A program made the position numbers and the translations under genes. From contig NC_086374.1 of the NCBI RefSeq assembly GCF_036588685.1, positions 2,480,001 through 2,544,000 on the forward strand: 64,000 nucleotides of DNA, read 5' to 3'. The stretch comes from Mytilus trossulus. Taxonomy: Eukaryota. Below the pieces are notes generated by a model, which searched no databases, was not told where the DNA came from, and was given only the letters and a program-made list of their open reading frames with translations. Of this stretch, positions 29,446 to 56,228 are shown in pieces (position 1 is the stretch's first letter; each line of letters opens with the position of its first letter).

Positions 29446-32400
29446 ATGTCCTTTCAGTTGCAATCAGTTTTAATCACAGATGAAATTGACACTCAGTGTG
29501 TCGAAATTTTACAGAAGAATGGAATTCAAGTGGTGAAAAATACAAAGCTAACGAAAGAACAACTTTTGACAGAAATTCCAGTAAGTATCAAGTTCAGCCT
29601 TCAGGTGCTTATGACTTTTATGCATGCATCAACTATGTGTCAAGTTTAAATGCTGACGCTTTGGGTTCTCTAAACCAGTGAGTTATAATTTTTGCTGCCT
29701 TTTGCAGAATTTTACAAAAATAGTGAGGTTGAAATTAAAAATATGTCTGATGATGTTAGGGATATATGTCATTATACTCATATGCATATGTACAGGATAC
29801 TAGATAGGTTAAGTGTAACCAGTTATAACCAGTTTTCATGGCACTGTGTCTATGTACATGCATGTAGTCGGAGACATATTATTATATGTCTCTGATGTAG
29901 TCTACTACTTCATTTGTGCCCAGATGTAACCAGTTTTCATGGCATGTCTTTGCCTGTCATTGTTATAAAACTAGTATCCATGGCCAGAAAGAAGAATTCC
30001 CATGTTTTTACTGTCTATATCGTTGGTTATTGGATGATCTTTTTAATCAAGTATTAAAAAAACACAAAATATTATATAAAAATTTCTTTTTTAGTCACTA
30101 AAATCATGAGTGTTATACCTAGACCTGGTTTATATAATACAAACAAACAAAAAAAACTATATTGTATCCAAAGCAGATCCTTTTAAAATTGTTAGATTTT
30201 AATCTGGTTACCAATAGTCTGTGTCCTGTCTAGTAGTAGTATATTTGTTAAAATGTACAAATTATTTATTAATGATTAAAAGTAATATGTCTCATTCCAG
30301 TACACTAATCCTATAAACTGTTTACATCTTATGACTATTAAATCTGCCTTTTTACTTACAATGTAGAGGAGGATTAAATGTGGTCATTTTGAATTATTAA
30401 ACATGTTAAAGATGGATTATGATGATGTAATTACAGAATAGTACATGTATCTGTTGTCATCAGTGATGTTCCGCATTCTTCATGGAATTTCTCGTTGCAT
30501 TGAAGACCTGTTGGTGACTTTCTGCTGTTGTTTTTTCTATGGTCGGGTTGTCTCTTTGACACATTCCCCATTTCCATTCTCAATTTTATTCATCAAGTTA
30601 CCTCTCCTTTTTCTCTTCCAAAACCCATTAATTCATTGTAATTATTTATACTTTAGGATTGATATTTTTTTGGGCCCTTTATAGCTTGCTGTTCTGTGTG
30701 AGCCAAGGCTCTGTGTTGGGAACATGTCTTTGATATTAAGTGTTGTCAGCTTTAGATTTCTATCGTATTATCACTTTTTTTTTGTTAATAACAAAGATTT
30801 TATTTAAACATTTTGGTCAAATACTATGAAAATTCATTTCTGATTGAGTTCAGCTGAATATGTTTTTTTATTAAATATTTATAGAAATATGATGGACTGG
30901 TAGTTAGATCTGCTACCAAGGTAACAGCAGATGTCATCAATGCTGGAACCAACCTGAAGATAATTGGTCGTGCTGGTACAGGGGTCGATAACATCGACTG
31001 TGATGCTGCCACAAAACGAGGAATTATTGTGATGAAGTAAGAATACTTTGTATATATAGATCTATGTACATCATTGTTTTATTAAGCAGTTATGTATTTG
31101 TTTTAAATTTCAGCTCATTCACAACCAAAAAAATTACTTCTTACTATGTTAAAAGCAATTCTAGATCCACAATTACTCTTGTTTTTCATCTTTCCCAAAA
31201 TAGCTTCTTCACTGCTGATTGTGGTCATTTGAAACACTTAATCAAAGATGACACTACAATCTATATAATGCATATTTTAACAATAATTCTGATCTTTTTG
31301 TACTCTGAACAAAATTTCATACACCTTGTTATTGTTGTAACAAACACTTTAACCTACATAAAAGTTTTAACATATTTTACATGCACAGTATGTTTTATAA
31401 TAAGAGGAAACTAAAGGAAGCCACAGATCATTGTTGAATAATGACTTCATGAAAAAAATGAGTAACATAACTTCTTATGTATGTTAACAATTTCCATGTT
31501 CCATTTCAGTACACCAGGTGGAAACACTCTTAGTGCTGCTGAACATACTTGTACATTGATATGTGCTTTATCAAGGTAAATACTGCTGATTCTGACATCA
31601 CTCAACAACTTCTGTTCACCAAACACTTGCATAATTTTATACTTTTAAGATAATCCACCTTTTTTTTGGTGGTGGTGGTGGTGGTGGGGGGGGGGGTATC
31701 ATCAGTGGCTCACAGTTTCACTTGTTTTGTCCTGGAACACATACTAGTTTATAAAGCAATTTTAAAAGCAATTTTAAAAGAGAATTGAAAAGATTGTGCA
31801 ATGGTAAAAAAAAGTTATATGTCATCTTCAACGAAAATGTGCAGAATAAGATGCTATTTCCTCTTAGTATACAAAAAAAACATGCTGAGGTTTTACTAAC
31901 CAAGTATCCTAAAACTTGACTCTAAAAACGTAAGACCATATTATAACAGATAGTCTGAGTTATTGAAAAGTGGTGGTCCTACGATTTTGTCCACCAAAAT
32001 TTGCAAAGAACTGGCACAGTTTTAGTATTTTGCAACAGAAATATTTCCCTCGAAGACCACCAGGGGAAAAAGGTTTCAAGAACTGTCGATAGTTTATTTT
32101 TGTATTTAGATAATGTTAAATTCCATTGTGTTTTTTATTGATTTAGCTCTATCTATAACAATATGTTGTACCGATAAATGAAATATTTAAATTTTAAACA
32201 TGTTAAATGTAAATATTTCAGACATATTCATCGAGGTGATAGAGCTATGAAAGAGGAAAAATGGAGTGAAAGAAAAGTTCTGATGGGTAATGAGCTTTAT
32301 GGAAAAACCCTGGCTATTATAGGTTTAGGAAGAATTGGTAAAGAAGTGGCTCTAAGGATGCAGTCATTTGGAATGACAGTAAGTAACAATACTGCGTATA

Positions 32401-35400
32401 ATTGTATAGATCAAGTGAAATCATATCTGTACAATATATACACAGGCTTCACATCTAAATGCTGTCCATTTTAGGCTTACCAAGAATTAACATTAAGAAT
32501 TAAGATTTAAAATTTCAAGCAAAGAGTGATGGCATTTGCTACATGTGTAAAAGTGTTTTCCCAAGAATTCTCAAGGCATCAGAATACACACAAAATTATT
32601 TCATAAACTTGCTTTTTTATATTTTTTTCCATTTGACACTTTAAAATGACACATTTTATTTGATGTTTCTTGGGGAAATGTTGATTAAATAAATAATGTG
32701 ACCATTGTGGACTAAAGAAAGATTTTAAGATTTGTGGATGCAGTCATTTTTATTGCCTGCCAAGTAAATTGTGGAAGGCAAGACACAGGTGTTGCTTTTC
32801 TGGCACATCAAAAAATATAAAAAAAAAGATTTGGTATGATTGCCAATGAGACAACTGTCCACAAGACACCAAAATGACACAGACATTAACAACTATAGGT
32901 CACGGTACGGCCCTCAACAATGGGCAAAGCCCATACCACATTTGTTTGAAGACTATGAAGTCTTTAAAAAATTAAATGAACATCTTACTGCCATAATTTT
33001 TTTTATCACAAACTTTGATTTTCCGTTTCTACTTTCAGACCATTGGTTATGATCCTATCATCCCAGCTGAGGTTAGTGCAGAGTTTAACACAGAATGGAT
33101 GCCACTGGAGAAGATTTGGCCACTAGCTGATTATATTACAGTCCACACACCACTCATTCCACAGACCAGAAGTAAGTTGATGTGGTCGAGGATATATGTA
33201 GGTCTACTTTCTCTAATACTAGAAGTCAACTGACATCTTGGGATGTAAACAAATGAGTGCTTTTCCTCAAATATAAAGTCAAACCAACTGTTAAGATTTC
33301 CTTTTATTTTCCAAAGCTTTTTGTTTGGAATATACCTGTTGAAGAATATTATAGAAATGTATGCTCAATTTAAATTGTATCATTTTGAAATTATTCACAA
33401 TTTTAAAGCTAGAACCTCATATAACATAGAACGGTTCTTAATAATCCTGATATTTAAATGTTTCAATATACACGATAGAGTTGACAAGACAGTATTTATC
33501 AAAATAAGCCAAGTATTGAGAAAAATATCCCCAAAAAAGACCAAAGGATTAAGAATTTACTATTTGGTTTTCACTAATACCGTAACTAAGTACTCATTCA
33601 TTAAGATAGAAATATGTTGTGTCTATTTTTGTATTGACAAATGACCCACTATTCTGCATTTGTAATGAAAGGTTATTGTTATTTGTCTTTACAGATTTAA
33701 TAAATGACCAAGTATTCTCAGTGTGTAAGAAAGGTTATTGTTATTTGTCTTTACAGATTTAATAAATGACCAAGTATTCTCAGTGTGTAAGAAAGGTTAT
33801 TGTTATTTGTCTTTACAGATTTAATAAATGACCAAGTATTCTCAGTGTGTAAGAAAGGTTATTGTTTATTTGTCTTTACAGATTTAATAAATGACCAAGT
33901 ATTCTCAGTGTGTAAGAAAGGTTATTGTTATTTGTCTTTACAGATTTGATAAATGACCAAGTATTCTCAGTGTGTAAGAAAGGTTATTGTTATTTGTCTT
34001 TACAGATTTGATAAATGACCAAGTATTCTCAGTGTGTAAGAAAGGTTATTGTTTATTTGTCTTTACAGATTTGATAAATGACCAAGTATTCTCAGTGTGT
34101 AAGAAAGGTTATTGTTATTTGTCTTTACAGATTTAATAAATGACCAAGTATTCTCAGTGTGTAAGAAAGGTTATTGTTTATTTGTCTTTACAGATTTGAT
34201 AAATGACCAAGTATTCTCAGTGTGTAAGAAAGGTTATTGTTTATTTGTCTTTACAGATTTAATAAATGACCAAGTATTCTCAGTGTGTAAGAAAGGTTAT
34301 TGTTTATTTGTCTTTACAGATTTAATAAATGACCAAGTATTCTCAGTGTGTAAGAAAGGTTATTGTTATTTGTCTTTACAGATTTGATAAATGACCAAGT
34401 ATTCTCAGTGTGTAAGAAAGGTTATTGTTTATTTGTCTTTACAGATTTGATAAATGACCAAGTATTCTCAGTGTGTAAGAAAGGTTATTGTTTATTTGTC
34501 TTTACAGATTTAATAAATGACCAAGTATTCTCAGTGTGTAAGAAAGGTTATTGTTTATTTGTCTTTACAGATTTAATAAATGACCAAGTATTCTCAGTGT
34601 GTAAGAAAGGTTATTGTTATTTGTCTTTACAGATTTGATAAATGACCAAGTATTCTCAGTGTGTAAGAAAGGTTATTGTTATTTGTCTTTACAGATTTGA
34701 TAAATGACCAAGTATTCTCAGTGTGTAAGAAAGGTTATTGTTATTTGTCTTTACAGATTTGATAAATGACCAAGTATTCTCAGTGTGTAAGAAAGGTTAT
34801 TGTTATTTGTCTTTACAGATTTGATAAATGACCAAGTATTCTCAGTGTGTAAGAAAGGTTATTGTTATTTGTCTTTACAGATTTGATAAATGACCAAGTA
34901 TTCTCAGTGTGTAAGAAAGGTTATTGTTTATTTGTCTTTACAGATTTAATAAATGACCAAGTATTCTCAGTGTGTAAGAAAGGTTATTGTTTATTTGTCT
35001 TTACAGATTTGATAAATGACCAAGTATTCTCAGTGTGTAAGAAAGGTTATTGTTATTTGTCTTTACAGATTTGATAAATGACCAAGTATTCTCAGTGTGT
35101 AAGAAAGGTTATTGTTATTTGTCTTTACAGATTTGATAAATGACCAAGTATTCTCAGTGTGTAAGAAAGGTTATTGTTATTTGTCTTTACAGATTTGATA
35201 AATGACCAAGTATTCTCAGTGTGTAAGAAAGGTTATTGTTTATTTGTCTTTACAGATTTAATAAATGACCAAGTATTCTCAGTGTGTAAGAAAGGTTATT
35301 GTTTATTTGTCTTTACAGATTTGATAAATGACCAAGTATTCTCAGTGTGTAAGAAAGGTTATTGTTTATTTGTCTTTACAGATTTAATAAATGACCAAGT

Positions 35401-38400
35401 ATTCTCAGTGTGTAAGAAAGGTTATTGTTTATTTGTCTTTACAGATTTAATAAATGACCAAGTATTCTCAGTGTGTAAGAAAGGTTATTGTTTATTTGTC
35501 TTTACAGATTTAATAAATGACCAAGTATTCTCAGTGTGTAAGAAAGGTTATTGTTTATTTGTCTTTACAGATTTAATAAATGACCAAGTATTCTCAGTGT
35601 GTAAGAAAGGTTATTGTTTATTTGTCTTTACAGATTTGATAAATGACCAAGTATTCTCAGTGTGTAAGAAAGGTTATTGTTATTTGTCTTTACAGATTTG
35701 ATAAATGACCAAGTATTCTCAGTGTGTAAGAAAGGTGTTAAAGTGGTTAATGTAGCGAGAGGTGGCATCATAGAAGAGGCGGCCATCAAGAGAGCTATAG
35801 AATCAGGTCAATGTGGAGGAGCAGGTCTAGATGTCTTTGAAAGTGAGCCACCTAAAGATTTCACCTTAGCAAAGATGCCACAAGTATTAGCCACTCCACA
35901 TTTAGGAGCAAGTACCACTGAAGCACAGAAACGGGTGGCTGTTGAGATTGCAGAACAATTTGTTGATGTGGTGCGAGGAAAAAGTTTATTTGGTGCTGTA
36001 AGTTGATGGTTAAAATAAGTTTCTGCAGAATTACATTTGGTTTTGCAAATAAAAAAAAAAGATCTCATTTGGACTGCTTATACTCTTCAGGTCATCCAAA
36101 CATTTCCTTTTAAATTTTCTGACATAACAGATCTTTTCATTTGTTGAATATCTACTTTTAACAAAGTTACACAATGTAAATAATTATCTATAATTATCCA
36201 AAACATTTTTAGCTTTAGATATTGGTAGGTTTAATGTTTACACAAACACTATCAAATACATTTGTACAACTATAATTGCCATTTAAACTGTTAGTATGCT
36301 ATATCTAGCTGTTTAGAAAATGAGTTTGAAAACAGTCTTCAAGAACAAATAGAAAGATGGAAAGTGATTTGAAATAAGGGTGATGATGTTTGAGTTTTCA
36401 ATATTATTGTATTATGTTGCAGATAAATGCTCATGCTATGACAAATGCATTGAGTCCAGAATCTCGACCATGGGTAGTACTTGGTAGGAAGTTGGGACAA
36501 GTGGCAGCAGGTTTAAACCCAGGAAACGTAGAAAATATGCAAGTCACAACTTATGGTATGAAAATCTTTTATGTACATGCACAGCTAAATAAACTCCTCT
36601 TACAACATTTAATTTATATATTTATCTCCCTTTATAACAGTAGATTTATAAAATTATCTCCCTTTATAACAGTAGATTTATAAAATTATCTCCCTTTATA
36701 ACAGTAGATTTATAAAATTATCTCCCTTTATAACAGTAGATTTATATAATTATCTCCATTTATAACAGTAGATTTATAGAGGTATTGAGAATAAGTTATA
36801 ATTTTACATGAATATAGACATACTAGAACATAAACTAGTCATGCTTGTAGTTTCCTTTTCTCACCACAGCTTTTGAATTTATCATTATTTTTTATGCCCC
36901 CCAACAATAGTAGATTGGCATTATGTTTTCTAGTCTGTTCGTCCATCCTTTTGTGAGTCTGTCCGGCTTCAGGTTAAAGTTTTTAGTCAAGGTAGTATTT
37001 GACAACCCTTTGATATGATCTTTCTAATTTAAATGCCAAATTGATTTTGACCCCAATTCACGGTCCACTGAACATAGAAAATGATAATGTTGAGGTCTTA
37101 TCAACTTAAAACTTAGTACACATGTTCCCTATGATATGATCTTTCTTATTTGGCATTATTTTTTACAGCAATTTCAAGGTCAACTGAACATAGAAAATGA
37201 TAGTGCAAATGAGGCATCAGAGTGCTATGGACACATTCTTGTTTAGGCTAATATATTAAATCTCCTGTCAAAAGAGATTGATAAATCTTAAATATATATC
37301 TTCATAAAGATAAAGAAGTGTGGTATAATTGCCATTGAGCATCAGAATTCAAATAAAGTGGGTGTTAGCAATTATAGTCATCTTTAAAAAGGCCTTTACA
37401 TGAAAAATGTAAAACAAATCAAACGAGGAAACAAAGGTCTTATTGATAACAAAACAATTTAATATGAAAAACTTTTGACAGACATGAACCAATGACAACC
37501 TCAGAACTACACTGACTCACCTGACTTGGGATAGGCACAACAGGAATGTGGAAGCTTTAAACATGATTGTTAGTGCTCAATCCTGGCTTGTTTTTAATTA
37601 AAATATTTGGGAGTAAAATAAGAGGCATATCATCTCAGAAAAGTATTTAAATTGTGAAATCAATTTCAGTTTTATTAGTATATTTGTAATAAGTATGGAT
37701 AATTGGATATTGAAATTAATAAAACATTACCTGTAATTGTGCAGCATTGGTGACATTTTTTATGAGTGTTATTTTTTTCTAGGACCATCATTGAAACAAG
37801 CTGGGTCCTACTTGAGTGCAGCTATACTCTCAGGATTACTACAGAACTCTCCTGCATTAGGAGGAGGGGATAGTCCTACTCTTAATCTAGTCAATTCTCC
37901 TGCCTTGGCAAAACAAATGGGATTAAATGTTAGTGCATTTTTATAATACCACTATTTGTTAAAAAGTGAGATAATGGCATTTTGTGAAATCTGTTTACAA
38001 TCAGCATTTACCTTCAAGTTTGTCATTTTTGTTGTCTGCACCTATTTTATTAAACCCTAGCAATGCTTTATGAACTAGATGTACAAATTTAGTTTGAGTA
38101 GAATATACAATTAAGCAGGATTTGTAATTCAACTAATGTGATACCATGTGCTCTGTATTTTTAAACATATTTCTGAAGGAATGGCAATTATTTGAGTGAT
38201 CGGGCAAACTTGAACTATTTGACAAAAACAAATAAATTTAGAAATATTTTTTTCCTTGACTCAATTTTCATGAAATTTTCTGTTATCATTGTTGAGTAAC
38301 CAGGAGGAATATAAGAGCATTGTCCGGGCAATTATTGGAAAACTCTTTGAAGATATATTTTTGAATTAAGATATGTTTGTTTCTTGAAACGAAATGAAGG

Positions 38401-39487
38401 TCAAGTTAAATTTTTCAGATTTTGTCTTCCATTATTGTTAAAATTTGTAATCTATTATTCAGGTAAAGAACACCCATGAAGAAGCAGCTCCATCGCCATA
38501 TACCAATGTAGTGTCAGTGATATTCAACAATGGATTCCGTCTGTCAGGAACAACTTCTGGTGGTAATGCCCTTCTCATTGAAGTCCAAGGTCAACAGTTC
38601 TCTGTACCTGCCTCACTAGTTGATGTAGCTTTACTCTTCAAAGGAACTGGTAACCCTCAGTTACTACCAACTGTAGCAGGTTAGTATAACTCTCAATGAA
38701 CAACAGAAAGGAGAGTTCAATTTGTACAAGTAAACAAAGAATTTTAGAATGCGTCTTAGTTACTGGTTCTAATTAAATCAAGCTCACTGTACCTACTCTG
38801 GTGATGTAACAATCTTGGTAAAATTACCTGTTGTATTTTATAATAGATATCATACAGTAATTATCAATAGCAGACATGAAAAATACCTCTTGTGAAGTTC
38901 TCAATGTACATATGTGAAAAAAATTGATGAGGTCACCATACATAAGAAGGATTATAAAATTCCTTATCGCTATTTTAACAAATTTTTCCTTGATTTTACT
39001 GACTGATAAAAAAGTTTCTCAGTCAGTAGAGTGATATGAAAAATTAATGCTAGAAACTTAGGGTGCACATGCAGTTGTCAATGAAATTAACAACATCGTC
39101 ATAGATAAAATAGCAATAAACAGATTATCATTGGTCATCTCAATGCCACTGCTTTTCTCACTTTCACTGTACCGCCTCAAGCAAGAAAATCAATTTCTTT
39201 AGATTACCAATCATAATCTATCAAAACTTGAAATAGTCAATATTCAATATAGGATATAAAAAAGACAACTTATTTGACATTATATATATGGAACCTGAAT
39301 GACATATATGAAATATTTCTTTTTAGGAGCTTTGGCTAGTGCTGGAATGTGTGTATCAAGTTTGACAGTTTCCATTGAAAATGATGGACAGAAATGGGGT
39401 GTAGCCACTTTTGCCACACCTCCAACAGAAAAATGTCTGGAAGTTCTGAAGACAATTGTAAATGCTGCAGTCCTTGTAACACTATGA
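29446..39487 (+). CDS. PHGDH: D-3-phosphoglycerate dehydrogenase, 10 exons, 533 aa
   Basis: Exons 29446-29580, 30885-31036, 31510-31575, 32222-32378, 33039-33171, 35696-35997, 36423-36555, 37783-37928, 38463-38679, 39327-39487 (1602 nt). Motifs [87 protein letters not shown]. Confidence 0.95.
29869..29894. mobile_element. 26-bp near-palindromic micro-insertion (same family), 7-bp TSD, PHGDH intron 1
   Basis: CGGAGACATATTATTATATGTCTCTG flanked by ATGTAGT at 29862-29868 and 29895-29901. Confidence 0.7.
33661..35736 (+). repeat. Tandem array of 62/63-bp units spanning the PHGDH intron 5/exon 6 junction (33 acceptor copies)
   Basis: Unit ttattgtt(t)atttgtctttacag|ATTT(A/G)ATAAATGACCAAGTATTCTCAGTGTGTAAGAAAGg. 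First AG ends at 33694 and last at 35695; 2001 bp fits only 15x62 + 17x63. Confidence 0.97.
36623..36778. repeat. 32-bp minisatellite, ~5 copies, PHGDH intron 7
   Basis: tatctccctttataacagtagatttataaaat at 36623, 36655, 36687, 36719, 36751. Confidence 0.9.
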
Positions 39488-42027
39488 GAACAATATGTAG
39501 TTTATTTTAGTTATTTGTAAGAACCATGGATTGGTCTTAAGATTTATCCAAGTCTAAATGAAAGGAAAATTCAGGTTATTGGTTATTATTTACTTTTGAG
39601 ACAATTATAAAAAGTATGAAAATAGGGCAATTAATCACACACACACACATATATTATTAGTGCATGTTTTGTTATTATATTAGTTATTAAAGATATAAGT
39701 GTTATGTTCGATCTCAATACTCATGATATTGAAATTTGTTTTTGTTTGTTTTCATTTTTTCCTATATTTGCAGTATCCTTATACTTGACAAATAATTATT
39801 AGGGCTAACTTTTGTTTGTGTAAGAATCCATTTTTCAGAAATCAAGATTTTTGTAATTTTTAAGATATTAAAATGTTAATTGTTAATATGGTTTTGTTTC
39901 ATATATTATTTTTTATAAATCGTTTTGATTTTCATAAGCATCCCCTCATAAGGAAAGACCCTTAACAGTTTGATGTATGAGTCATATTTTCAAAAACCTA
40001 AGCCAAAATATTGTGATTGTCTGATTATGTCTTCCAATCATTGAATAATCAACCAATAATGTAGTAGTATAGTCATTACAAATAGGTAAATAACCGAACA
40101 ATCTGTTGAGAAATAAATACTAAGTTAAGTAAGATGCCAGAACAAGCATTCTTATGAATTATTACTTTTTTGTATGAAAACAAATGCCATTAAAATTTAA
40201 AGTGGCTTAACTTTAGCATTTTAGAGACTTAATACAAAATTGGTTACATTTAATAAAAGAAATGTTTGAATGATTACTATTTTGTTAACATTGTGATAAT
40301 TTGGTTACATTGTAATGATTTGGTAAAATTGTAATAATTTGGTTACATTGTTAATTAAGTTTGATAACATTGTGATATACTTTTAAATGTAGTTTGCTGT
40401 AAGTTTTGAAAACTTTTGATTCCTCTAAAACATTTCACATTGCATTGAGGTTTATATATTGTTCATCTAAATACAATTACCTCATTATTCAGACTTATGA
40501 CAAATATAAGCTGCAACAGCTGTGAAGATTGGTTGTGTATTTTCATTAGAATCATTATTATTTTTAAAATCTAAGGACCAATTTATTAATCTTAGGATTT
40601 ATTATGAAAATTCAATCATTAAATAAAAATAATTGTATATTAATAGTTCATAGTATATGTTATTTGGTAAAGAATTGTAGAGCCACATTCTGTTTTTGTT
40701 AGCAGTATTGAAGCTTGAAGGTGTTGGTATGTAAGGTCATTTGATCAGTATTAAAGCATTAAGGTGTGGGTTGAAAGGTCACATATCCAGTGTACTTAAT
40801 ATTATCATTTATTTCTGTTTGAATCTCACAAGTTATGCATACTCAAGATATATTTTTACATTGATGTTTTAATTCCATGAAGCATTAATTTCATTGAGGA
40901 TTATGAAAACAGTTGTAAGATTATCATTTTTGTCCTCAAATTATTTTTTCTTTACACTAAATATGTACCATTAATTTTCAGCAAGTAAATCAAAACTGTT
41001 TTGTGTTAGAGTAGTGTACCTATCCTGGATTTCTGTAATCTGTATTGAGAAATTGGAAAACACTTTTAGGCAGTATATACAAATTAAAAAAATCTTAGTG
41101 GCAGTTAAAAAAAAATCATATAAAGCCTATAGAGGAAATCACCAGGAATTAAACATTTAGATAAAATTAAATAAATATACATTTTGCCTAGTTTGGATTG
41201 GAGACTTTTATTTTTATTTACCAAGTTTTTTACGAATCTGCTTCCCCAGTGTGTTGGTTTATATTTAGGTGCAATTGTTCCCTACTTTTTTTATATTTTG
41301 TTATTTTGTGAGAAAATGAAGAAAGTTGAGCAATTTTTCTTATCTAGTCTTTTAATTTCTATAGTGATTTGTTTGTAAACTGTATACATTATGATCTTCA
41401 ATAAAACATTAATAAGAACAGTTTATTAATACAGCCACTACCAAAAGAGGACATGAGGCTTAAGGGCTGATATTAAAACACTTTAATTTAGGGTTACCTA
41501 ATTGCTAACCAACTATAGTTGTTGGGTTTGATAAAGACAGATAATTACCACATATTGATTTGTACTGTTTAATCTCATAATAGTTTACATTATTAAAGCT
41601 GTTACACAAATTCGAATGTAAAATTGAAAATAAATATTTTATGTATGGCTGTGTTCACTTGTGTCTATATTTTGTAATTTCAAAAACTTTTGTTTTCATT
41701 ATGGCCATTCTTCTTGATGTCTCTTTTTAAGCAATAAACACCGGGCTGAATATTTGAACCATCATTTGTTATGCTATTGATTAGGAAGATAATATATAAA
41801 CAAAGGGGAATGCTATGTGTAATCAATGAAACCGCAAGCCAATGCAAAAAAAAACCCAAACCAACAAAATACAGGTGGTCTAAGAGATGAACATAAAAAC
41901 TACAGACTTGAATACTGATATTTGCTGCTTCTCTGCTTAGTATGTGGCAGAAAGTGTTCAGAATCAGACTGTTTCCTGCAGACCTTGTGAACTAGCACTT
42001 CAGAAATATGGCTCAGTGTTTATGTAG

Positions 42028-43493
42028 CATGTTCTTGTCTTAAATGTGCTTTTAGTTAGACACTGGACATTGACAAACCATACATCAACACAAATAAATA
42101 AGTCTTATAATATCCGTACATGTACTTGTCTTAAATTTGCATTTAGTTAGACACTGGACATTGACAAATCATACATCAACACACATAAATAAGTCTTATA
42201 ATATCAGTACATGTTCTTGTCTTAAATGTGCTTTTAGTTAGACACTGGACATTGACAAACCATACATCAACACAAATAAATAAGTCTTATAATATCCGTA
42301 CATGTACTTGTCTTAAATGTGCTTTTAGTTAGACACTGGACATTGACAAACCATACATCAACACACATAAATAAGTCTTATAATATCAGTACATGTTCTT
42401 GTCTTAAATGTGCTTTTAGTTAGACACTGGACATTGACAAATCATACATCAACACACATAAATAAGTCTTATAATATCCATACATGTAGTTGTCTTAAAT
42501 GTGCTTTTAGTTAGACACTGGACATTGACAAATCATACATCAACACACATAAATAAGTCTTATAATATCCGTACATGTACTTGTCTTAAATGTGCTTTTA
42601 GTTAGACACTGGACATTGACAAACCATACATCAACACACATAAATAAGTCTTATAATATCAGTACATGTTCTTGTCTTAAATGTGCTTTTAGTTAGACAC
42701 TGGACATTGACAAACCATACATCAACACAAATAAATAAGTCTTATAATATCCGTACATGTACTTGTCTTAAATGTGCTTTTAGTTAGACACTGGACATTG
42801 ACAAACCATACATCAACACAAATAAATAAGTCTTATAATATCAGTACATGTTCTTGTCTTAAATGTGCTTTTAGTTAGACACTGGACATTGACAAATCAT
42901 ACATCAACACACATAAATAAGTCTTATAATATCAGTACATGTTCTTGTCTTAAATGTGCTTTTAGTTAGACACTGGACATTGACAAATCATACATCAACA
43001 CAAATAAATAAGTCTTATAATATCCGTACATGTACTTGTCTTAAATGTGCTTTTAGTTAGACACTGGACATTGACAAACCATACATCAACACACATAAAT
43101 AAGTCTTATAATATCAGTACATGTTCTTGTCTTAAATGTGCATTTAGTTAGACACTGGACATTGACAAATCATACATCAACACACATAAATAAGTCTTAT
43201 AATATCAGTACATGTTCTTGTCTTAAATGTGCTTTTAGTTAGACACTGGACATTGACAAACCATACATCAACACAAATAAATAAGTCTTATAATATCCGT
43301 ACATGTACTTGTCTTAAATGTGCATTTAGTTAGACACTGGACATTGACAAATCATACATCAACACAAATAAATAAGTCTTATAATATCAGTACATGTTCT
43401 TGTCTTAAATGTGCTTTTAGTTAGACACTGGACATTGACAAACCATACATCAACACAAATAAATAAGTCTTATAATATCTGTACATGTACTTG
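42028..43493. repeat. 91-bp tandem satellite, 16 copies
   Basis: catgt(t/a)cttg recurs at 42028, 42119, 42210 ... 43484 (exactly 16x91). Confidence 0.95.
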
Positions 43494-43780
43494 CTTTCAG
43501 TACTTATTTTCCACCAATGACAGGGTAAACAAATATTAAATAATTGAAGCCTATTATCTGGAAAAATATTTTAGACAAAAAGTAGAACACTGACAAAGGC
43601 CAACAATACAACTTGAAACAAGATCCATAAAACATTAAATTTGACTGAATCTATGAGTTTAGTCCTTTTTATAAATGACAATTTGTAACTTGTAGCATTT
43701 CTTCCAATTATTTTAGAAATATTATAGATAGGACAGAAACTAAAGCAATTAACAAACACTATAACAATACATGTGCTACC

Positions 43781-46700
43781 AGTCACATTTGGACTTGATC
43801 TGTGATTGGTGATAATAAGCATTGTGTTTTATAAGTTGGAGTCACATTTGAACTTGATATGTGGTTGGTGATAATAAGCATTGTGTTGTATAAGTTGCAG
43901 TCTCAATTGCACTTGATCTGTGGGTTTGGTGATAATAAGCATTGTGTTTTATAAGTTACAGTCACATTTCCACTTGATCTGTGTTTGGTGATAATAAGCA
44001 TTGTGTTTTATAAGTTACAGTCACAGTTGGACTTGATCTGTGATTGGTGATAATAAGCATTGTGTTGTATAAGTTGCAGTCTCAATTGCACTTGATCTGT
44101 GTTTGGTGATAATAAACATTGTGTTTTATAAGTTGCAGTCACATTTCCACTTGATCTGTGTTTGGTGATAATAAGCATTGTGTTTTATAAGTTACAGTCA
44201 CATTTGGACTTGATCTGTGATTGGTGATAATAAGCATTGTGTTTTATAAGTTACAGTCACATTTGGACTTGATCTGTGTTTGTTGATAATAAGCATTGTG
44301 TTTTATAAGTTGCAGTCACATTTGGACTTGATCTGTGATTGGTGATAATAAGCATTGTGTTCTATAAGTTACAGTCACATTTGCACTTGATCTGTGATTG
44401 GTGATAATAAACATTTTGTTTTATAAGTTGCAGTCACATTTCCACTTGATCTGTGTTTGGTGATAATAAGCATTGTGTTTTATAAGTTGCAGTCACATTT
44501 GGACTTGATCTGTGTTTGGTGATAATAAGCTTTGTGTTTTATAAGTTGCAGTCACATTTGGACTTGATCTGTGATTGGTGATCATAAGCATTGTGTTTTA
44601 TAAGTTACAGTCACATTTGCACTTGATCTGTGTTTGATGATAATAAGCATTGTGTTTTATAAGTTGCAGTCACATTTGGACTTGATCTGTGATTGGTGAT
44701 CATAAGCATTGTGTTTTATAAGTTACAGTCACATTTTCACTTGATCTGTGTTTGGTGATAATAAGCATTGTGTTTTATAAGTTGAAGCCACATTTCCACT
44801 TGATCTGTGTTTGGTGATAATAAGCTTTGTGTTTTATAAGTTGCAGTCACATTTGGACTTGATCTGTGATTGGTGATCATAAGCATTGTGTTTTATAAGT
44901 TACAGTCACATTTGCACTTGATCTGTGTTTGATGATAATAAGCATTGTGTTTTATAAGTTGCAGTCACATTTGGACTTGATCTGTGATTGGTGATCATAA
45001 GCATTGTGTTTTATAAGTTACAGTCACATTTTCACTTGATCTGTGTTTGGTGATAATAAGCATTGTGTTTTATAAGTTGAAGCCACATTTCCACTTGATC
45101 TGTGTTTGGTGATAATAAGCATTGTGTTTTATAAGTTGCAGTCACATTTGGACTTGATCTGTGATTGGTGATAAAAAGCATTGTGTTTTATAAGTTACAG
45201 TCACATTTGCACTTGATCTGTATTTGTTGATAATAAGCATTGTGTTTTATAAGTTACAGTCACATTTGCACTTGATCTGTGTTTGGTGATAATAAGCATT
45301 GTGTTTTATAAGTTACAGTCACATTTGCACTTGATCTGTATTTGGTGATAATAAAACATTGTGTTTTATAAGTTGGAGTCACATTTGCACTAGATCTGTG
45401 TTTGGTGATTATAAGCATTGTGTTTTATAAGTTGCAGTCACATTTCCACTTGATCTGTGATTGGTGATAATAAACATTGTGTTTTATAAGTTGCAGTCAC
45501 ATTTGGACTTGATCTGTGTTTGGTGATAATAAGCATTGTGTTTTATAAGTTGCTGTCACATTTGGACTTGATCTGTGTTTGGTGATAATAAGCATTGTGT
45601 TTTATAAGTTGAAGCCACATTTCCACTTGATCTGTGTTTGGTGATAATAAGCATTGTGTTTTATAAGTTGCAGTCACATTTGGACTTGATCTGTGATTGG
45701 TGATAATAAGCATTGTGTTTTATAAGTTACAGTCACATTTGGACTTGATCTGTGTTTGGTGATAATAAGCATTGTGTTTTATAAGTTGCAGTCACATTTG
45801 GACTTGATCTGTGATTGGTGATAATAAGCATTGTGTTCTATAAGTTACAGTCACATTTGGACTTGATCTGTGTTTGGTGATAATAAGCATTGTGTTTTAT
45901 AAGTTGCAGTCACATTTGGACTTGATCTGTGATTGGTGATAATAAGCATTGTGTTCTATAAGTTACAGTCACATTTGCACTTGATCTGTGATTGGTGATA
46001 ATAAACATTGTGTTTAATAAGTTGCAGTCACATTTCCACTTGATCTGTGTTTGGTGATAATAAGCATTGTGTTTTATAAGTTGCAGTCACATTTGGACTT
46101 GATCTGTGTTTGGTGATAATAAGCATTGTGTTTTATAAGTTGCAGTCACATTTGGACTTGATCTGTGATTGGTGATCACAAGCATTGTGTTTTATAAGTT
46201 ACAGTCACATTTGCACTTGATCTGTGTTTGGTGATAATAAGCTTTGTGTTTTATAAGTTGCAGTCACATTTGGACTTGATCTGTGATTGGTGATCATAAG
46301 CATTGTGTTTTATAAGTTACAGTCACATTTGCACTTGATCTGTGTTTGATGATAATAAGCATTGTGTTTTATAAGTTGCAGTCACATTTGGACTTGATCT
46401 GTGATTGGTGATCATAAGCATTGTGTTTTATAAGTTACAGTCACATTTTCACTTGATCTGTGTTTGGTGATAATAAGCATTGTGTTTTATAAGTTGCAGT
46501 CACATTTGCACTTGATCTGTGATTGGTGATAATAAGCATTGTGTTTTATAAGTTCCAGTCACATTTGGACTTGATCTGTGTTTGGTGATAATAAGCATTG
46601 TGTTTTATAAGTTACAGTCACAATTGAACTTGATATGTGTTTGGTGATAATAAGCATTGTGTTTTATAAGTTCCTGTCACATTTGCACTTGATCTGTGTT

Positions 46701-48266
46701 TGGTGATAATAAGCATTGTGTTTTATAAGTTGAAGCCACATTTGCACTTGATCTGTATTTGGTGATAATAAGCATTGTGTTTTATAAGTTGCAGTCACAT
46801 TTGCACTTGATCTGTGATTGGTGATAATAAACATTGTGTTTTATAAGTTGCAGTCACAATTGCACTTGATCTGTGTTTGGTGATAATAAGCATTGTGTTT
46901 TATAAGTTGCAGTCACATTTGAACTTGACCTGTGTTTGGTGATAATAAGCATTGTGTTTTATAAGTTGTAGTCACAATTGCACTTGATCTGTGTTTGGTG
47001 ATAATAAGCATTGTCTTTTATAAGTTGCAGTCTCATTTGCACTTGATCTGTGTTCGGTGATAATAAGCTTTGTGTTTTATAAGTTGCAGTCACATTTAAA
47101 CTTGATCTGTGTTCGGTGATAATAAGCTTTGTGTTTTATAAGTTGCAGTCACATTTGCGCTAGATCTGTGTTTGGTGATAATAAGCTTTATGTTTTATAA
47201 GTTGCAATCTCATTTGCACTAGATCTGTGTTTGGTGATAATAAGCTTTGTGTTTTATAAGTTGCAGTCTCATTTGCACTAGATCTGTGTTTGGTGATAAT
47301 AAGCTTTGTGTTTTATAAGTTGTAGTCACATTTGCACTAGATCTGTGTTTGGTGATAATAAGCATTGTGTATTATAAGTTGCTATCTCATTTGCACTAGA
47401 TCTGTGTTTGGTGATAATAAGCATTGTGTTTTATAAGTTGCAGTCTCATTTGCACTTGATCTGTGTTTGGTGATAATAAGCATTGTGTTTTATAAGTTAC
47501 AGCCACATTTGAACTTGATCTGTGTTTGGTGAAAATAAGCATTGTGTTTTATAAGTTGCAGTCATATTTGAACTTGATCTGTGTTTGGTGATAATAAGCA
47601 TTGTGTTTTATAATTTGCAGTCACATTTGAACTTGATCTGTGTTTGATGATAATAAGCATTGTGTTTTATAAGTTGCAGTCACATTTGCACTAGATCTGT
47701 GTTTGGTGATTATAAGCATTGTGTTTTATAAGTTGCAGTCACATTTCCACTTGATCTATGATTGGTGATAATAAGCATTGTGTTTTATAAGTTGTAGTCA
47801 CATTTGAACTTGATCTGTGTTTGGTGATAATAAACATTGTGTTTTATAAGTTGGAGTCACATTTGCACTAGATCTGTGTTTGGTGATTATAAGCATTGTG
47901 TTTTATAAGTTGCAGTCACATTTCCACTTGATCTATGATTGGTGATAATAAGCATTGTGTTTTATAAGTTGCAGTCACATTTGCACTTGATCTGTGTTTG
48001 GTGATAATAAGCATTGTGTTTTATAAGTTGCTGTCACATTTGGACTTGATCTGTGTTTGGTGATAATAAGCATTGTGTTTTATAAGTTGCAATCTCATTT
48101 GCACTAGATCTGTGTTTGGTGATAATAAGCATTGTGTTTTATAAGTTGCAATCTCATTTGCACTAGATCTGTGTTTGGTGATAATAAGCATTGTGTTTTA
48201 TAAGTTGCTATCTCATTTGCACTAGATCTGTGTTTGGTGATAATGAGCATTGTGTTTTATAAGTTG
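43781..48266. repeat. 59-bp tandem satellite, ~76 copies
   Basis: Unit agtcacatttggacttgatctgtgtttggtgataataagcattgtgttttataagttgc; period 59 (43781, 43840 ...). Confidence 0.95.
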
Positions 48267-51200
48267 AATAATAATATTAGGTAGATACAAAGTAAAGTAA
48301 GAGTGCCAAAACAGCAAGTTCACAAATTTCTGAAATTTGTAAAGGGACATTACTCATGAACTTTGTAAGTGCCACTCAAACTCCAACTAGATTTGTGTTT
48401 GGTAGTTATGAGCATTGTGTATTAGTTTCAAAACATTTGGTTGAGGCAAAGAAAAGTTTTGAGAACTGAAACACATTTTTGGATGAACACCAATACAGAG
48501 CCATGCCCATTCTGACAAGATGGCATAAAAATATGTCCTTGACCCTGTCGGCCAACCTACATGGCAGTCAATAGAATATAGAGGTTATGTGTTTGTCATG
48601 TATTTACTTCGAAAAACACTTGATCTACTTTACTATTCATAAATCAAAAGTGCATGACAACTTCTCATTTGAGTTGTTGCCCTTTTATGGCCAATTTGAC
48701 AAAGCTATCAGATTTCAGGAAATATTGCATATAAATAATGCTATTAAAATTAAAATGTGAGTTTTTAATTTTGTTGAATCTATCCCATCAAATTTCTGAA
48801 TCTTTAGTATTCAACTTATTACCAATGCGTTTGTTTCACATAATTCTATTACTGCATTTCAAGTGCTATGCCCAGTGAATTAAATAAACAAAAAAAGTTA
48901 AGTGAGAATCTAATTTTACTGCATGAAAATATACACATGAATAAGAAATAACAATTTGTAATAAAATAGATATGACAAAAATAATAACATGATCACAGTT
49001 TCCTCATAATAAACAATAATAAGTCCACAAAATATATACCCATCATAATATCTAACATTGTTAAACATGTTCTGGAATTAGAAACACTATATAGTATTAA
49101 ATATTACATGATGGGCGTATTGAATTGATAGATGCAAAGTAATGAAAAAATATTTTTTTAATTTACATTTCAGACTTGTAACAAATGGTTAGAATTGATA
49201 ACATATAACAATTCATCTGTTTGACAGTAATGTAATGAGACATTTGCTTTACTTTTATTATGCTCCCAATACAATATTCAGGAGCAAATAACAATTTGCT
49301 TTGTTCAATAGTTCCTCCCTCCATGCATCTAGAACAATGGTTTTCAATTTTAATCAGCTAATGATTTTGGAGTCAATATTTTAAGGTCACTGTTAGTAAG
49401 TATATAAAAAAATGAAAAATGGTTTCCCATGCTTGTTGGGATGACATTTATATAGATGAAAGATTTAGGGAAGGGGAAGACACTTATTGATCTTTCGAAC
49501 AAGAGGTCACAGGTCAAGATCACTGTTACTTGAATAGATTTTAGTTTTGATTTCCTGATACTATCTCTCTATAAATTATTAAACATAAACACAGGTATTT
49601 ATTCGAGCGACTCCAGGACATATTTATTTGTCCCTCCAACCATAGGATTGTTGACTTTTTGAAATAAATAATATTTTTTTATCTGTGTTCAGTTTGGGAA
49701 GCTTTAGTTGGCAGTGCCAGCTTTTTATTTGTTTAGGCTACTTAGCTTTGATTTATCCATCATACCTGGAATTAACATTAGATAAGCAATAGGAAGAAAA
49801 ACATTGCCCAAGGTGAGCTATATAGAAATTATTATGTACAGGACAGATCTATATGATTTGGACTGTGACATTCAGTAGTCAATAAAAGTGGACCAAAACA
49901 TTACAGTAGTCAATAAAAATATCAATCCATATGAGATTTCTTTACATAACATGGTTTCTATCATCTCATCATGGTCCTTTTTACCTACATAATTGTAAAT
50001 CATTAGCACAGTACACTCCTCTTCTGATAGAACATTCCTATATGAGCGGGACTAAATGTATAAAGATCCTTTAAATTCTTACATATAGAGCACTATTATT
50101 TATACATTTTTTTTAACAAAGCTATAAAAATTGAACCATAATAAGAATGATTTAAAACATGCATTTTAATTCAGCTTATGCATATTTTTAAAACAGTTGA
50201 ATTGTTCTTAATTATTGTGAAACTAACATTTATAAACTTACAAAACAATTTCCCAATTTATACATGTTTAAGAATGATAATATCCCTCACTGAAGCATTA
50301 TTGAAACATACACATATTATTATATACAGCAAGTAGTTTACACTTTTCCACTGAAGCTGAAGTGAATGACCATTTTATATATAGTGAAATTAATTCTACA
50401 AACAAACAAAAAAATGTCATGCAAATTTACCAATGATAACAGACTAAAATAAATGAAGTGTGGTTCTAGCAAATCATTTAATTAATATTTTTTTTTAATT
50501 CAGAGGGCATAACTTTTTTTTCTCAGACAAATGATGGCACATCAATATTGATTCCTTTAAGAATGCATTTATTCATTCTATTATCTTCCTAAAGGCCAAA
50601 ATTGTTGATGTTAATCTACAAAAGGCTAAATTTTCAAATTTTTCAGAGTATAAATCTTACACATTCATATAAAGATTGTATGGATAAACAATTTTAACAA
50701 AAATCTATATAAATGTTGAAATAATGATACATGACAAAACATTTGTGACACAAAAATAATTTAACAACTATCACTGGTTTAAATGGAGAGAACAACCATA
50801 TATTATCCATGATCAAAATATAGAGAAATAAATGATTGTTTTTGCTCAATGTCCAGTGACAAACATTTCATACAAAGTTTGGACGATACTTTTCAAGTTT
50901 TTGTACATTGGATAAAGAAAATCTTTTAATAATTTTAGATATAATTTATCCTTTAAGCAATCACTTTGCTAACAGAATTTCAACCTTTTTTCTGTGTTAT
51001 TCATTTAGGATATGAAAAACTTTAGAATAAGCATTAAACTGAGTACAAATTTAGGCAGATTTGTTACTGACTTCCAGAAAGGTTTATTGCCAAGACTATA
51101 AATTTCATACACTGTAGCACACATAACAACTTTAATAATAAAAACATGAATTCATAATTTTCACTTGTTATAAACTTATTTTGGAAAGAAACATCAGATT

Positions 51201-52010
51201 ATTTATTATTTGTCCTGAAACAAATAAGCTGTCATACGTGCAAAACACATTTTTAAATGGCAGATTACATAGAAAATACATTTTAAGTTCCCGATATATA
51301 TTTCTAATGTGTATATCTTTTTTAAGATAGAGACTATTATTTATGTTCACTGTTTCTTCCATTAAAATAATATCATTTTTAGTATTATTTTACATCAATA
51401 AATATATCTACATAGACAATGGTGTAAATATGATGGTGACAGCAATCCAACAACACCATGTTGATATATTGTTTATTACATGCTCAGCATTGACTATAAC
51501 AGACTAGCATGTCTGTAAAAATTTAGTTTCATAGAAATCTCTATTAGAAACATATTTCATAAAATAATGAAATAATATCATAAGAATAAAACATATGATT
51601 TTCATACTTCTGAGACCATAATGAAATACCAGTCATTAAAAAATTCTCCAGAAAGTTTTCTCTTCACTAAATTATGTTGTACATAGCTTTTTCTGATAGT
51701 TAGAATTCTGTCAACAAAATAAAACAACAATTGTCCAGCATTATCACAAAGACAGACTCCATTAAGATTTGTATAAACACAAATGTAATAATAAAAACAT
51801 TCATTACCTCAAAGTTCATATAACACATAATTTAACTTGGATGTGTACCAGTTTTGTATACAGATATTTGAGACAAAAAAATAAAACATTTGCATGTCTG
51901 TGACCTTTGACCTGAGATATGGTATATATTCGTCATTCAGATAGATATCCTAGAATCAGATATCGTCAAAGTTTTCAATTGCACTTTTGCCCTCTTTCAA
52001 CGTTGGTAGG

Positions 52011-55000
52011 CTATTTCTTGTGATCTTCTTTGTAATTGTTGACGACATCTTCATAAGTAGGAGGGACTGTTTTGTTGTAACCATATACATCAGTAGGGGG
52101 CGGGGTTCTGTAATACTCTGCTTCTGTAATATCATCTCTATATCTTTCACCCTATAAAACACAATATAATTAGTATTAATAAAAGCATCATTTTTTATTT
52201 ATATTATTTTGTAGTATCTTTAATATTGGATAAAATTGCTAATTCAAGTGAGCATGGAATGATTATGGTCAGTTTGTAGTAATGATTCTGCTGACATAAG
52301 TGATGCCCAAAATCTTTATGGAAATGCCAAAATCGGGTGAAATACCTTTGCAAATATTTTCAGTGCATCACTAATATTCACCATGAAATATCCCCTACTT
52401 AAGTGTTCTGTCGATAGAGGAAGTAAATCCATGGTACTGAATGCCTTTCTCCCAATTTGTTTCTAATAAATGAAACTCCACGATTGTAGTTTGAATCAAC
52501 TCTACAAACTGGAATAATGAAACAGGAGTATATTTAAGCTATAAATAGTCACAATTGAGTTACATGTATGTCTTAGACTATTACAGGATTTCTAATGATA
52601 ACTGTATAATTATTTCAAATAGAATTTAATATGATTTCTGTTTGATACTGTTTTAAAAATGTCTCACATGTGCTTCTCAGGAGTGGACCATACATAGTGT
52701 TACGAATCATTTTATATCCAATTGAGGGTTGTATGATTTTAGATTCGCAATGACTAACATGTGCTAAATGAATGACTTTTTGACAATGAATTATTATAGA
52801 TAAGCATCTTAGACGCATATATGCCTCTTAATGAGAACCCTGGAATATAGGTTGGGTTTAACTTACATGTGTCAAAAATCTCTGTTTATTCAACAATTGA
52901 CTGTACATGTATATAGGTTGAGTGTGACTTACATTTGCCAGGGATGGCTGTTTGCTTGACAATGGACTGTATATAGGTTGAGAAGTACCAATAAAGATTC
53001 GACTGTCTCTGTATCTTGTCTTCCATAAACATAAACACATGGACAGCAGTACAAGGAAGAAAATTATACCACACCTACAATGATAAATATATAGACATTG
53101 ATAATAGACATTGATAACAAAACCGGCATGACAAGAGTAGTTTATCATGTCTATAGCATGTTTTTAAAGAGCCCAGGTGGTCGTGTGGTCTAGCCGGACG
53201 GCTGCAGTGCAGGCGATTTGGTGTCACGATATCACAGTAGCATGGGTTCGAATTCCGGCGAGGGAAGAACCAAAAATTTGTGAAAGCAAATTTACAGATC
53301 TAACATTGTTGGATTGATGTTTAGTCTAAATTGAAAACTACGTTCAAACCTATGATTGCATTGGATAAAAACTGCAATTTTTATACGTGTGCATATGATG
53401 TAAAACAAATTTCGTTGTAGAAGGCTCTAAAAACAGCACAAACAACATTTTCCAAAAGACCAAAAAAGTGAAAAAGTATATTTAAACCTAACGCATTTGA
53501 CTAACAGGTCGAACAACTGATGTTCTTTAACCCTGTTGACTGCCATTGGCGATTGCCAATTTAAATTGATCACAAGATGAAACAAAATGGATCTTAATAT
53601 AAATTTAATACTAAACTAATTTTTTTTTTAACTTGTGGCCACGATGTTATGCCACAAACATACAGTGTCAATATTTTTTTAGTACACCAGATCCGGATTA
53701 TATATACTGTAAATTCAGAAATTAATGCGAGGTTTTTATTATTGCGAAAAATGCGACTGAGTTGTAAACGCAATAATTTAAACTTGCATTTTGAAATTTT
53801 TTATATGAATTTAACAGGATTTTTTTCAAAATCGTAAAAATTAAAATCGCATTTAAGCCTAAAATCGCAATAAAAAATGCACGCAATAATTTCTGAATTT
53901 ACAGTAGATATATAGACACATGTCTTACCAGAAATACCACAGTTCCCAATTCCAAACTGTTTTATGCATATATTGTCTTACCAGAAGAGCCACAGTTCCC
54001 ACACTGTACATGACACACAGCACACACTGTCTTACCAGAAATACTATAATTCCGAAACTGTTTATGACATGCCGTATAAAATGACTAACCAGAAATACAA
54101 CAGTTTTCAAACTGACTGTATATGACACACAGCATATATTGTCCTAATAGAAATACCACAGTTCACAAACTGTAAATGACACACATCACATAATGTCTCT
54201 CCAGAAATACCACAGTTCCCAAACTGTATATGACACTCAGAATTATGAATATATTGTCTTACCAGAAATACCACAGTTCCTAGAGTATATGACACACAGC
54301 ACACACTGTCATGACTGTCTTACTAGAAATACCACAATTCCCAATTTGTTTATGACATACAGCACAAAATATCTTACCAGAAATACCACAGTTCTCAAAC
54401 TGTATATGCCACACAGCACAACATGACTTACCAGAAATGCCACAGTTCCCAAACTGTATTATATATGACACACAGCACAACATGACTTACCAGAAATACC
54501 ACAGTTCCCAAACTGTATATGACACACAGCATATATTATCTCCACAACAATACTCATTCTCCAAACATCTTTCACTGTCACAGTAATAGCCTTCTACCTG
54601 TAATGTTTTATTTTGAATTACTATAACATGTACATGTATAACAGATATCAGAACTTGTGTACCAAGAGAACACACAACAAGACTATTAATTATTAACTGC
54701 CAAACCATCTTAGGGTGAAACATTAATATTTGATTTTTGTTCTCTTTTACATGTATCTGAATCCAAATCAGTACAAAACAACGAATGTGTCCAAAGTACA
54801 CGGATGCGCCACTCGCACTATCCTTTTCCATGGACCATGAAATTGGGTAATAATCTAATTTGGCATTAAAATTGGAAAGATTATACTATAGGGAACATAT
54901 GTACTAAGTTTCAAGTTGATTGGACTTCAATTTCATCAAAAACTACCAGGACCAAAAACTTTAACCTGAACAGAAGCACAGACGAACGGATGGACGAACG

Positions 55001-56228
55001 GAGCCACAGACCAGAAAACATAATGCCCCTTTACTCATAAAAACCATGTATGTTGCTAGTTTATGGCTTCAATGGCAATGATGATTAAAATAATCAACTA
55101 ATTTTGCCAAATCATTTTTCCAAAAATTAAGGTTACAATAATGAATATAAAAAATAGGACCTCTGACAAATCATGACAAGTTTATTTTGACTAGTCACAG
55201 AAAAATTTAAACCAATTTGATGCTAATGGTAGACTAAAACCGCTGTATGACACCTGAAAACAAAAGGCGTCCTTCCTCATAACTACATGAACTAAGAATG
55301 AAAAATCCTGTGTGCAATTACTTCGTTATAAGGTTAACACTAAACAGGTTAACTACTGATCCCTACAGATCAATAGGAGATCAGCACCTGGGATTCGTAG
55401 GGGGTCAGTATCAAACTATTATACTAACAGGACTGGAAACCATTACACCAATCAGTGTAATAATATCAAACTATTATACTAAAAGGACTGGAAACCATTA
55501 CACCAATCAGTGTATTAGTCTACATCACAGTCATTTATAGAACTAGACTTCAACTGTGCTATTTATCCTTGCTATATTGTTTTGACAGTGACAGGATGCT
55601 GTGTTAGTATAATAGTCCCAGCTATAAACGTATTTACACTTTTGGTATTTAGCTGTATTTTGCCTCCGAATGACCCTATATCACCTCCGAAGTCAAGCAA
55701 CAATCACTTTTTAGTTGTGATGTCATATGTTTTGAATTATGAAGTCAAAGTTTACGGGAACCTGTGTGATGTTATGTAATGGCGGACAAATTTGCATACA
55801 AGTGTAAATACGTTTATTATATATCACTTCTAGATTTTGTCACTTTTGCATTTTTTGATAGTTTGCCAAGATTTTTTTATAAATTTATCAAAAATTATTT
55901 TGCTATAATGTATTTATATCTTTCATTTCTTTCATTAGATATGAAACTATTTACAAACATATGAACGACTGAGTAATAACTTCTTATTTCACGATAAATA
56001 TTATAGCAGAATCAGGCGATCGATCAGCTGTTCTTTGTTCCACGTATTCCATGAAAATTCCATTTGCAAGAGCATAGATTCAAATTATTCGCTTTTAACT
56101 AAAGAAATATGAAAAAAGAAGTTTTATTTTATTTGTTTTCACAAATCAGTTAACACTTTCGTTAAACAACTTACCAAATCTGTTAAAAAATGTGCAAAGA
56201 AAAAACAAAACATCAGATCCGACGCCAT
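52011..56228 (-). CDS. WBP1/WBP1L/VOPP1-family small type I membrane protein, 4 exons, 147 aa
   Basis: Exons (minus): 56228-56175 ([18 protein letters not shown], signal-peptide-like, least certain exon), 54597-54491 ([36 protein letters not shown]), 53074-52933 ([19 protein letters not shown]...), 52151-52011 (...TPPPTDVY...VPPTYEDVV...stop). The Cys-rich ectodomain, ELWYFW motif, TM segment and PPxY motif are WBP1-family hallmarks. Phases 0, 2, 0 are consistent. Confidence 0.8.
53170..53325 (+). mobile_element. tRNA-derived SINE
   Basis: A box TGGTCGTGTGG and B box GGTTCGAATTCC followed by a non-tRNA tail; a second, rearranged copy is at 27163-27621. Confidence 0.7.
53707..53904. mobile_element. 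Tc1/mariner-type MITE with TA TSD
   Basis: TA|CTGTAAATTCAGAAATTAATGCG ... CGCAATAATTTCTGAATTTACAG|TA. Confidence 0.75.
53920..54535 (-). repeat. Degenerate ~53-60-bp tandem array of WBP1-like exon 2 end plus 5' splice site (~11 copies)
   Basis: Plus-strand cttaccagaaataccacagttccc-like cores near 53924, 53977, 54031, 54085, 54143, 54197, 54258, 54319, 54373, 54427 and 54486. Confidence 0.9.

Follow-up and report, generated by a model that had tools for sequence, protein, structure and literature searches.

Tandem repeats straddle three exon-intron borders in two neighbouring genes of the mussel Mytilus trossulus

The stretch of Mytilus trossulus DNA analysed here, which we call the window, has a length of 64,000 nucleotides and includes two neighbouring genes with tandem repeats across their coding splice junctions. 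The first gene, PHGDH, lies on the plus strand and is modelled with ten exons (29446-39487) encoding 533 residues with the Pfam domains 2-Hacid_dh, 2-Hacid_dh_C and PGDH_inter. Its spliced product is identical to the M. trossulus RefSeq protein XP_063421099.1 at 533 of 533 residues and shares 529, 526 and 523 identical residues with the models of M. edulis, M. galloprovincialis and M. californianus, respectively. The second gene is VOPP1-like. Its four exons on the minus strand (56228-52011) encode a protein of 147 residues, which matches the M. trossulus VOPP1-like model throughout (147/147) and contains the Pfam domain WBP-1. The relevant features are the following:

33039..33171, plus strand: PHGDH exon 5, whose donor faces 33 acceptor copies and must join one of them
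33633..33694, plus strand: diverged edge copy on the intron side (copy 0), ending in decoy acceptor 1
33695..35695, plus strand: 32 tandem units of 62/63 bp, each with about 40 nt of the exon 6 start and 22-24 nt of the intron end including its AG
35696..35997, plus strand: authentic exon 6 of PHGDH (NAD-binding domain), preceded by acceptor 33
52011..52151, minus strand: last coding exon of the VOPP1/WBP1-like gene
52845..52932, minus strand: 66-bp duplicate of the end of exon 3 and its donor, with a second donor after 52867
52933..53074, minus strand: VOPP1-like exon 3; both putative RNA runs use its authentic donor, after 52933
53921..54490, minus strand: ten diverged copies, 53-61 bp long, of the end of exon 2 and its donor
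54491..54597, minus strand: VOPP1-like exon 2, with its authentic donor after 54491
56175..56228, minus strand: first coding exon of the VOPP1-like gene

All three tandem repeats reported in a preliminary description of this DNA are present, and its count of one acceptor (PHGDH exon 6) and two donors (VOPP1-like exons 2 and 3) is correct. The repeats also differ in their level of divergence as described, with 98%, 75% and 71% matches within the arrays, while the start of the first has to be moved from 33661 to 33634. As such, the three arrays are far beyond chance.

The PHGDH array (33634-35736, period 63, 33.6 copies, 98% matches) presents the acceptor of exon 6 thirty-three times, with AG ends running from 33694 to 35695 and the dinucleotide kept in 33 of 33 copies. 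Its 32 units fall into four variants (10, 10, 7 and 5 units), which differ by one G/A site and one T. At the former an A is found in 15 of the 33 copies, and thus a silent A replaces the G of the real exon in 15 of the 32 decoys. While the inner units are homogenised to the point of two variable sites, the unit at the edge has diverged: copy 0 and copy 1 are alike at 42 of 62 bases in an ungapped comparison, and the final 28 bases of copy 0 are identical to those that precede the authentic acceptor. This pattern suggests a single old duplication that may have been followed by a recent expansion. As a result of the units intron 5 measures 2524 bp; without them it would be 523 bp long.

Used alone, each of the 32 upstream acceptors leads to a premature stop, and the frame is open from acceptor 33 only. 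Since the 62 bases in front of this authentic acceptor form a unit like the others, it is distinguished solely by the exon that lies downstream. We also considered selection for the frame-breaking unit of 62 nt beside the real exon and dropped the idea, as the edge copy has the same form, which for this reason is probably the ancestral one. A search of metagenome contigs with an exact 20-base pattern from exon 6 gave 0 matches, and no orthologous PHGDH intron was obtained.

At exon 3 of the VOPP1-like gene, a repeat at 52845-52971 (period 66, 1.9 copies, 75% matches) provides one extra donor 66 bp downstream of the first, in frame and with its GT kept (1/1). Its use would add 22 amino acids to the protein free of any stop. 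On a donor matrix made from the window's own 20 donors, a small set in which one donor is placed 4 nt off and scores 2.7, the second site reaches 10.6 and the first 10.3. The ends of the 66-bp unit are marked by a 10-base repeat with three occurrences.

The array at exon 2 (53921-54535, period 54, 11 copies, 71% matches) contains ten extra copies, whose exon-derived part of about 42 nt is alike at 25-40 of 42 positions. The GT is retained in 8 of the 10 extra donors, and reading through beyond the first donor meets an immediate stop. The preliminary description held that one intact productive splice path remains in each case. This is so for the PHGDH array and for the array at exon 2; exon 3 has two open paths, the one through the second donor being stop-free. 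The survival of an intact path does not in itself speak for filtering, since the copy on the exon side stays whole whenever a junction is copied head to tail.

Can the use of these sites be followed? Four contig runs, out of 24 listed, were compared over 51500-56400, with the distinction between RNA and DNA being the guess of the tool. The two putative RNA runs, X6 and X8, stem from two studies and both contain canonical joints at 52150-52932 and 53072-54489, whose CT..AC ends correspond to the first donors. At the latter joint the short side of X8 measures 96 nt, which exceeds the duplicated 42 nt so that the copies can be told apart, whereas the 31 nt of X6 do not distinguish them. No joint at a decoy site was found among the 15 joints listed, beside a further 334 outside the listing, for these contigs, from which rare forms drop out; low-level use of decoys may therefore remain compatible with the data. 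All four runs share three differences from the window and thus represent other haplotypes or species. Normal splicing is kept at both VOPP1 donor events in these putative RNA contigs from other animals. The DNA contigs of X1 and X2, which carry two organism labels, traverse the 66-bp duplicate and extend over parts of the 54-bp array, within which contigs break. As they carry both VOPP1 repeats, the repeats are not confined to this assembly.

Protein comparisons point in the same direction. The insert of 22 amino acids is absent from all six VOPP1-like proteins compared (6/6), five of which have the normal join of exons 2 and 3. In PHGDH the normal join of exons 5 and 6 is found in all nine aligned members of a cluster of ten, whose source animals may lack the array; in animals that carry it, the last acceptor would probably be the one used. 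The new isoforms anticipated in the preliminary description appear neither in the VOPP1-like and PHGDH proteins compared nor among the joints listed.

Its anticipation of gene-model errors, on the other hand, is borne out by VDI02154.1 (P0001), a draft protein model from M. galloprovincialis. Its N-terminus corresponds to the 54-bp array read in a different frame, and the WBP-1 hit is lost. Since the N-terminus derives from the array, the array must be present in M. galloprovincialis as well. In two further draft protein models from this species, VDI02156.1 and VDI02155.1, a part of PHGDH exon 9 recurs on both sides of a segment matching intron 9. They imply a putative duplication that would span the exon 9 donor with a length of about 357 bp and may be an assembly fault; the window does not contain it.

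Repeats of this kind have been described in amphioxus, where the original paper on the Adh3 gene is reportedly that of Canestro et al. from 2002. PMC3087553 reports amphioxus globin and Adh3 genes in which intron-exon borders are duplicated in tandem, and names these duplications mirages: both borders are hit, splicing is apparently normal, edge units lie outside homogenisation, and a model of intron gain is proposed. A further amphioxus gene, PGBD5, is added by PMC3902484; it carries two repeats of this type, and its gene model was misled in predicted exon 5. The mussel repeats are likewise head-to-tail tandems with a unit that spans an authentic border and with many copies that retain AG or GT. 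Further common features with the amphioxus cases (Adh3, BflGb6/BflGb9, troponin C and PGBD5) are the involvement of 5' and 3' borders, the loss of AG or GT in some copies, edge units that escape homogenisation, misled gene models, and the occurrence of more than one repeat per gene (PGBD5; VOPP1-like here). What differs is the host, here a bivalve, and the size of the PHGDH array, which has 33 copies compared to 3-6 in BflGb6 and 2-7 in PGBD5.

A second precedent is a 37-bp VNTR in intron 7 of the human F7 gene, for which PMC1557585 reports 5-9 identical donors. The most upstream one alone is used, even where downstream donors are in frame. The border between exon and intron lies within the first unit, and the donors compete, which is the arrangement of the two VOPP1 donor events as well. 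In contrast, mutation experiments were done on F7, whose copies are identical, while the VOPP1 copies are diverged and known from sequence. F7 is moreover a donor case; in the PHGDH array it is the last of the acceptors that has to be chosen. To call this source of decoy sites under-described, as the preliminary description did, was an overstatement, given that the class has been named (PMC3087553, PMC3902484) and experimentally dissected in human F7 (PMC1557585). The literature searched, which took in few subscription journals and not the supplements of the two amphioxus papers, held no report of mirages in molluscs and no genome-wide test for an enrichment of repeats at borders. As far as these searches reach, the repeats described here extend mirages to molluscs.

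Are three junctions more than one would expect to be covered? Forty-two coding junctions are annotated in four genes of the window; untranslated exons are omitted, and the expected number of overlaps is therefore understated. A nearby copy is found at three of the 42 junctions (30-39 of 40 bases alike), the remaining 39 reaching 18-24 of 40. Altogether the window contains 20 local duplication events, 3 at junctions, 17 at no annotated junction and 0 wholly coding. The same 21 kb that hold the three repeats also contain larger arrays that touch no annotated junction (91 bp x16 and 59 bp x76), as well as two further ones away from junctions (32 bp x5 and 38 bp x2.4). These off-junction arrays had been omitted from the preliminary description.

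Base-level overlap was rejected as a measure of enrichment, as a handful of very large arrays accounts for most of it: at thresholds of 26-30 of 40 bases, a nearby copy exists at 15-17% of all positions vs 7% (3/42) of the junctions. Events were counted instead. For the null, seeds of the observed lengths were placed randomly with margins of 12, 8 and 2 nt, large arrays being collapsed and wholly coding placements excluded. With all 20 events, 0.63-0.95 overlaps are expected vs 3 observed (P(>=3) 0.022-0.066). The 12 strict head-to-tail arrays give an expectation of 0.35-0.54 (P 0.004-0.014) and the 9 gene-body events one of 0.75-1.2 (P 0.031-0.107). The observed 3 thus exceed the expected 0.35-1.2 under every null, and P is below 0.05 in six of nine settings, in a window that was chosen, out of very many, for its pattern. 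Junctions are covered in mild excess, with P from 0.004 to 0.11 before allowing for the choice of the window, and a bias towards them, one of the two alternatives in the preliminary description, is unproven.

We consider it probable that ordinary short duplications happened to cover these borders and persist as a tolerated by-product, since the exon-adjacent copy remains the one that is spliced. Part of this explanation is that the cluster of three events reflects a repeat-rich genome together with the choice of the window. The course of events can be sketched from the anatomy, the intact exon-side copies, the stops on the decoy paths and the observed use of the authentic VOPP1 donors; the steps beyond this are our reconstruction or follow what is generally known of minisatellites and splicing. 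The first copy would have come from slippage or mis-repair between short repeats on either side, and such repeats are found at all three events (7 bp at PHGDH, 10 bp at exon 3 and about 5 bp at exon 2 of the VOPP1-like gene). The geometry would then place the new copy in the intron and leave the one on the exon side whole, so that it is tolerated, while a copy within a coding exon would be purged. Unequal exchange could expand and homogenise some of the arrays, with edge copies such as PHGDH copy 0 left behind. Exon definition, or a scanning for the first donor as in human F7, would select the authentic site. Transcripts that leak would mostly be cleared by nonsense-mediated decay, given that almost every decoy path ends in an early stop. 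This agrees with one alternative of the preliminary description, amplification filtered by selection, which fits the 20 local duplications, the absence of wholly coding ones and the short repeats at the array ends. Taken as a whole, the interpretation given in that description is partly supported.

Several observations count against a mere by-product. The three junction events exceed every expectation given above, all three units are exon-heavy, with an intron share of about 0.2-0.35, and the fourth junction duplication implied by the M. galloprovincialis drafts at PHGDH exon 9 is what a junction bias would also predict. Duplications might be born preferentially at exon-intron borders, through a break or slippage coupled to transcription or splicing or through the step in composition at the border, and mirages would then form a mutational class of their own, common in mussels. 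The junctions covered by three of nine gene-body events and by three of twelve strict arrays, above the expectations given, speak for such an origin, as does the possible case in the sister species. Yet P lies at 0.06-0.11 in three settings, the window was selected for exactly this kind of pattern and its junction set leaves out untranslated exons, 39 of 42 junctions are free of copies, and the two largest arrays stand away from annotated junctions. We regard a border bias as unlikely, although it retains a real chance of being right.

That the copies are in use strikes us as quite improbable. They could serve a VOPP1 isoform with 22 additional amino acids, in-frame micro-exons of 30 or 39 nt in PHGDH, or an intermediate of intron gain in that gene. 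The second donor of exon 3 is indeed in frame and scores like the first, and both micro-exon options preserve the frame; the extended VOPP1 form, however, is missing from the six proteins and from the joints listed, and the donors within the PHGDH unit score 1.8 and 4.7 vs 7.0-12.1 for 19 genuine donors. Intron gain would proceed from the first acceptor to a donor at unit position 39 and on to an acceptor at the matching position of the real exon, yielding an identical protein. In line with the model of Rogers described in PMC3087553, the PHGDH unit ends in an AG/GT proto-splice site by which the reading frame is restored. The would-be acceptor, however, has no pyrimidine tract and a score of -5.7, below all 22 genuine ones (-0.1 to 16.6, leave-one-out), which makes this route unlikely at PHGDH.

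Finally, an origin of the PHGDH array, or of its length, in faulty assembly can be set aside as very improbable: its units are 98% alike, one of the two sites at which they vary lies in a run of T and changes it by a single base, and the array is known from this one assembly, but the G/A and T variants form four unit types in mosaic order beside a diverged edge copy, and both VOPP1 repeats were found in independent DNA contigs.

Border repeats are a hazard for annotation, as a public mussel model was built from an array and lost its family hit. The PHGDH array, moreover, is a natural test of acceptor choice, in which the silent tag of 15 of the 32 decoys would be readable in RNA. A junction bias, should it be shown genome-wide, would amount to a new mutational rule that bears on intron gain, something beyond the reach of a single window. 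We would give only a small chance to the furthest-reaching picture, in which duplications in mussels, and perhaps in other marine invertebrates, are born preferentially at borders as a genome-wide class that seeds decoy splice sites, with the PHGDH array and its silent tag offering a direct read-out of how the spliceosome passes over 32 almost identical acceptors, and possibly showing an intron in the course of being gained.

The stretch from the 3' end of PHGDH to that of the VOPP1-like gene contains two large arrays, with units of 91 bp and 59 bp, neither of them at an annotated junction. A single diverged copy of the 59-mer lies apart at ~48385-48435 and may mark a parent element. These and the remaining features of the window are as follows.

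Further genes, open frames and repeats
7878-13996, minus: coiled-coil protein gene; eight coding exons that join into an open frame
21268-22784, plus: two-exon HAD-type phosphatase gene
36612-36778: 32-bp array near PHGDH exon 7, five copies, 97%
38549-38905, plus: PHGDH exon 9 to intron 9, counterpart of a stretch whose duplication is implied by two M. galloprovincialis draft models
42028-43493: 91-bp array, 16 copies, 96%
43780-48266: 59-bp array, 76 copies, 92%
53140-53900, 54780-55100, 55600-55930: very high-copy dispersed repeats in VOPP1-like introns
58285-58654: 29-bp array reaching an assembly gap of N; because it enters the gap, it may be longer than these coordinates show
62115-62789, plus: 224-codon open frame

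We take the coiled-coil gene, whose first exon was looked for and not found, to be CFAP210-like; the phosphatase gene is presumably PHOSPHO1/2-like, and a degenerate 145-bp array follows it (23102-23516).

The dispersed repeats reach summed depths of ~50,000 to 1.7 million among contigs aligned to 51500-56400 (run X1, classed as DNA by the tool's guess), and one immediately adjoins the start of the 54-bp array at the VOPP1-like exon 2 donor.

Within PHGDH, the 32-bp array starts ~57 bases past the exon 7 donor and does not cover it. Two draft M. galloprovincialis protein models (P0026 and P0030; accessions VDI02156.1 and VDI02155.1) imply a ~357 bp duplication across the exon 9 donor, which is absent from the M. 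trossulus window. This duplication is possibly a fourth mirage (a tandem repeat whose unit spans an exon-intron border), here in PHGDH, or possibly an assembly fault.
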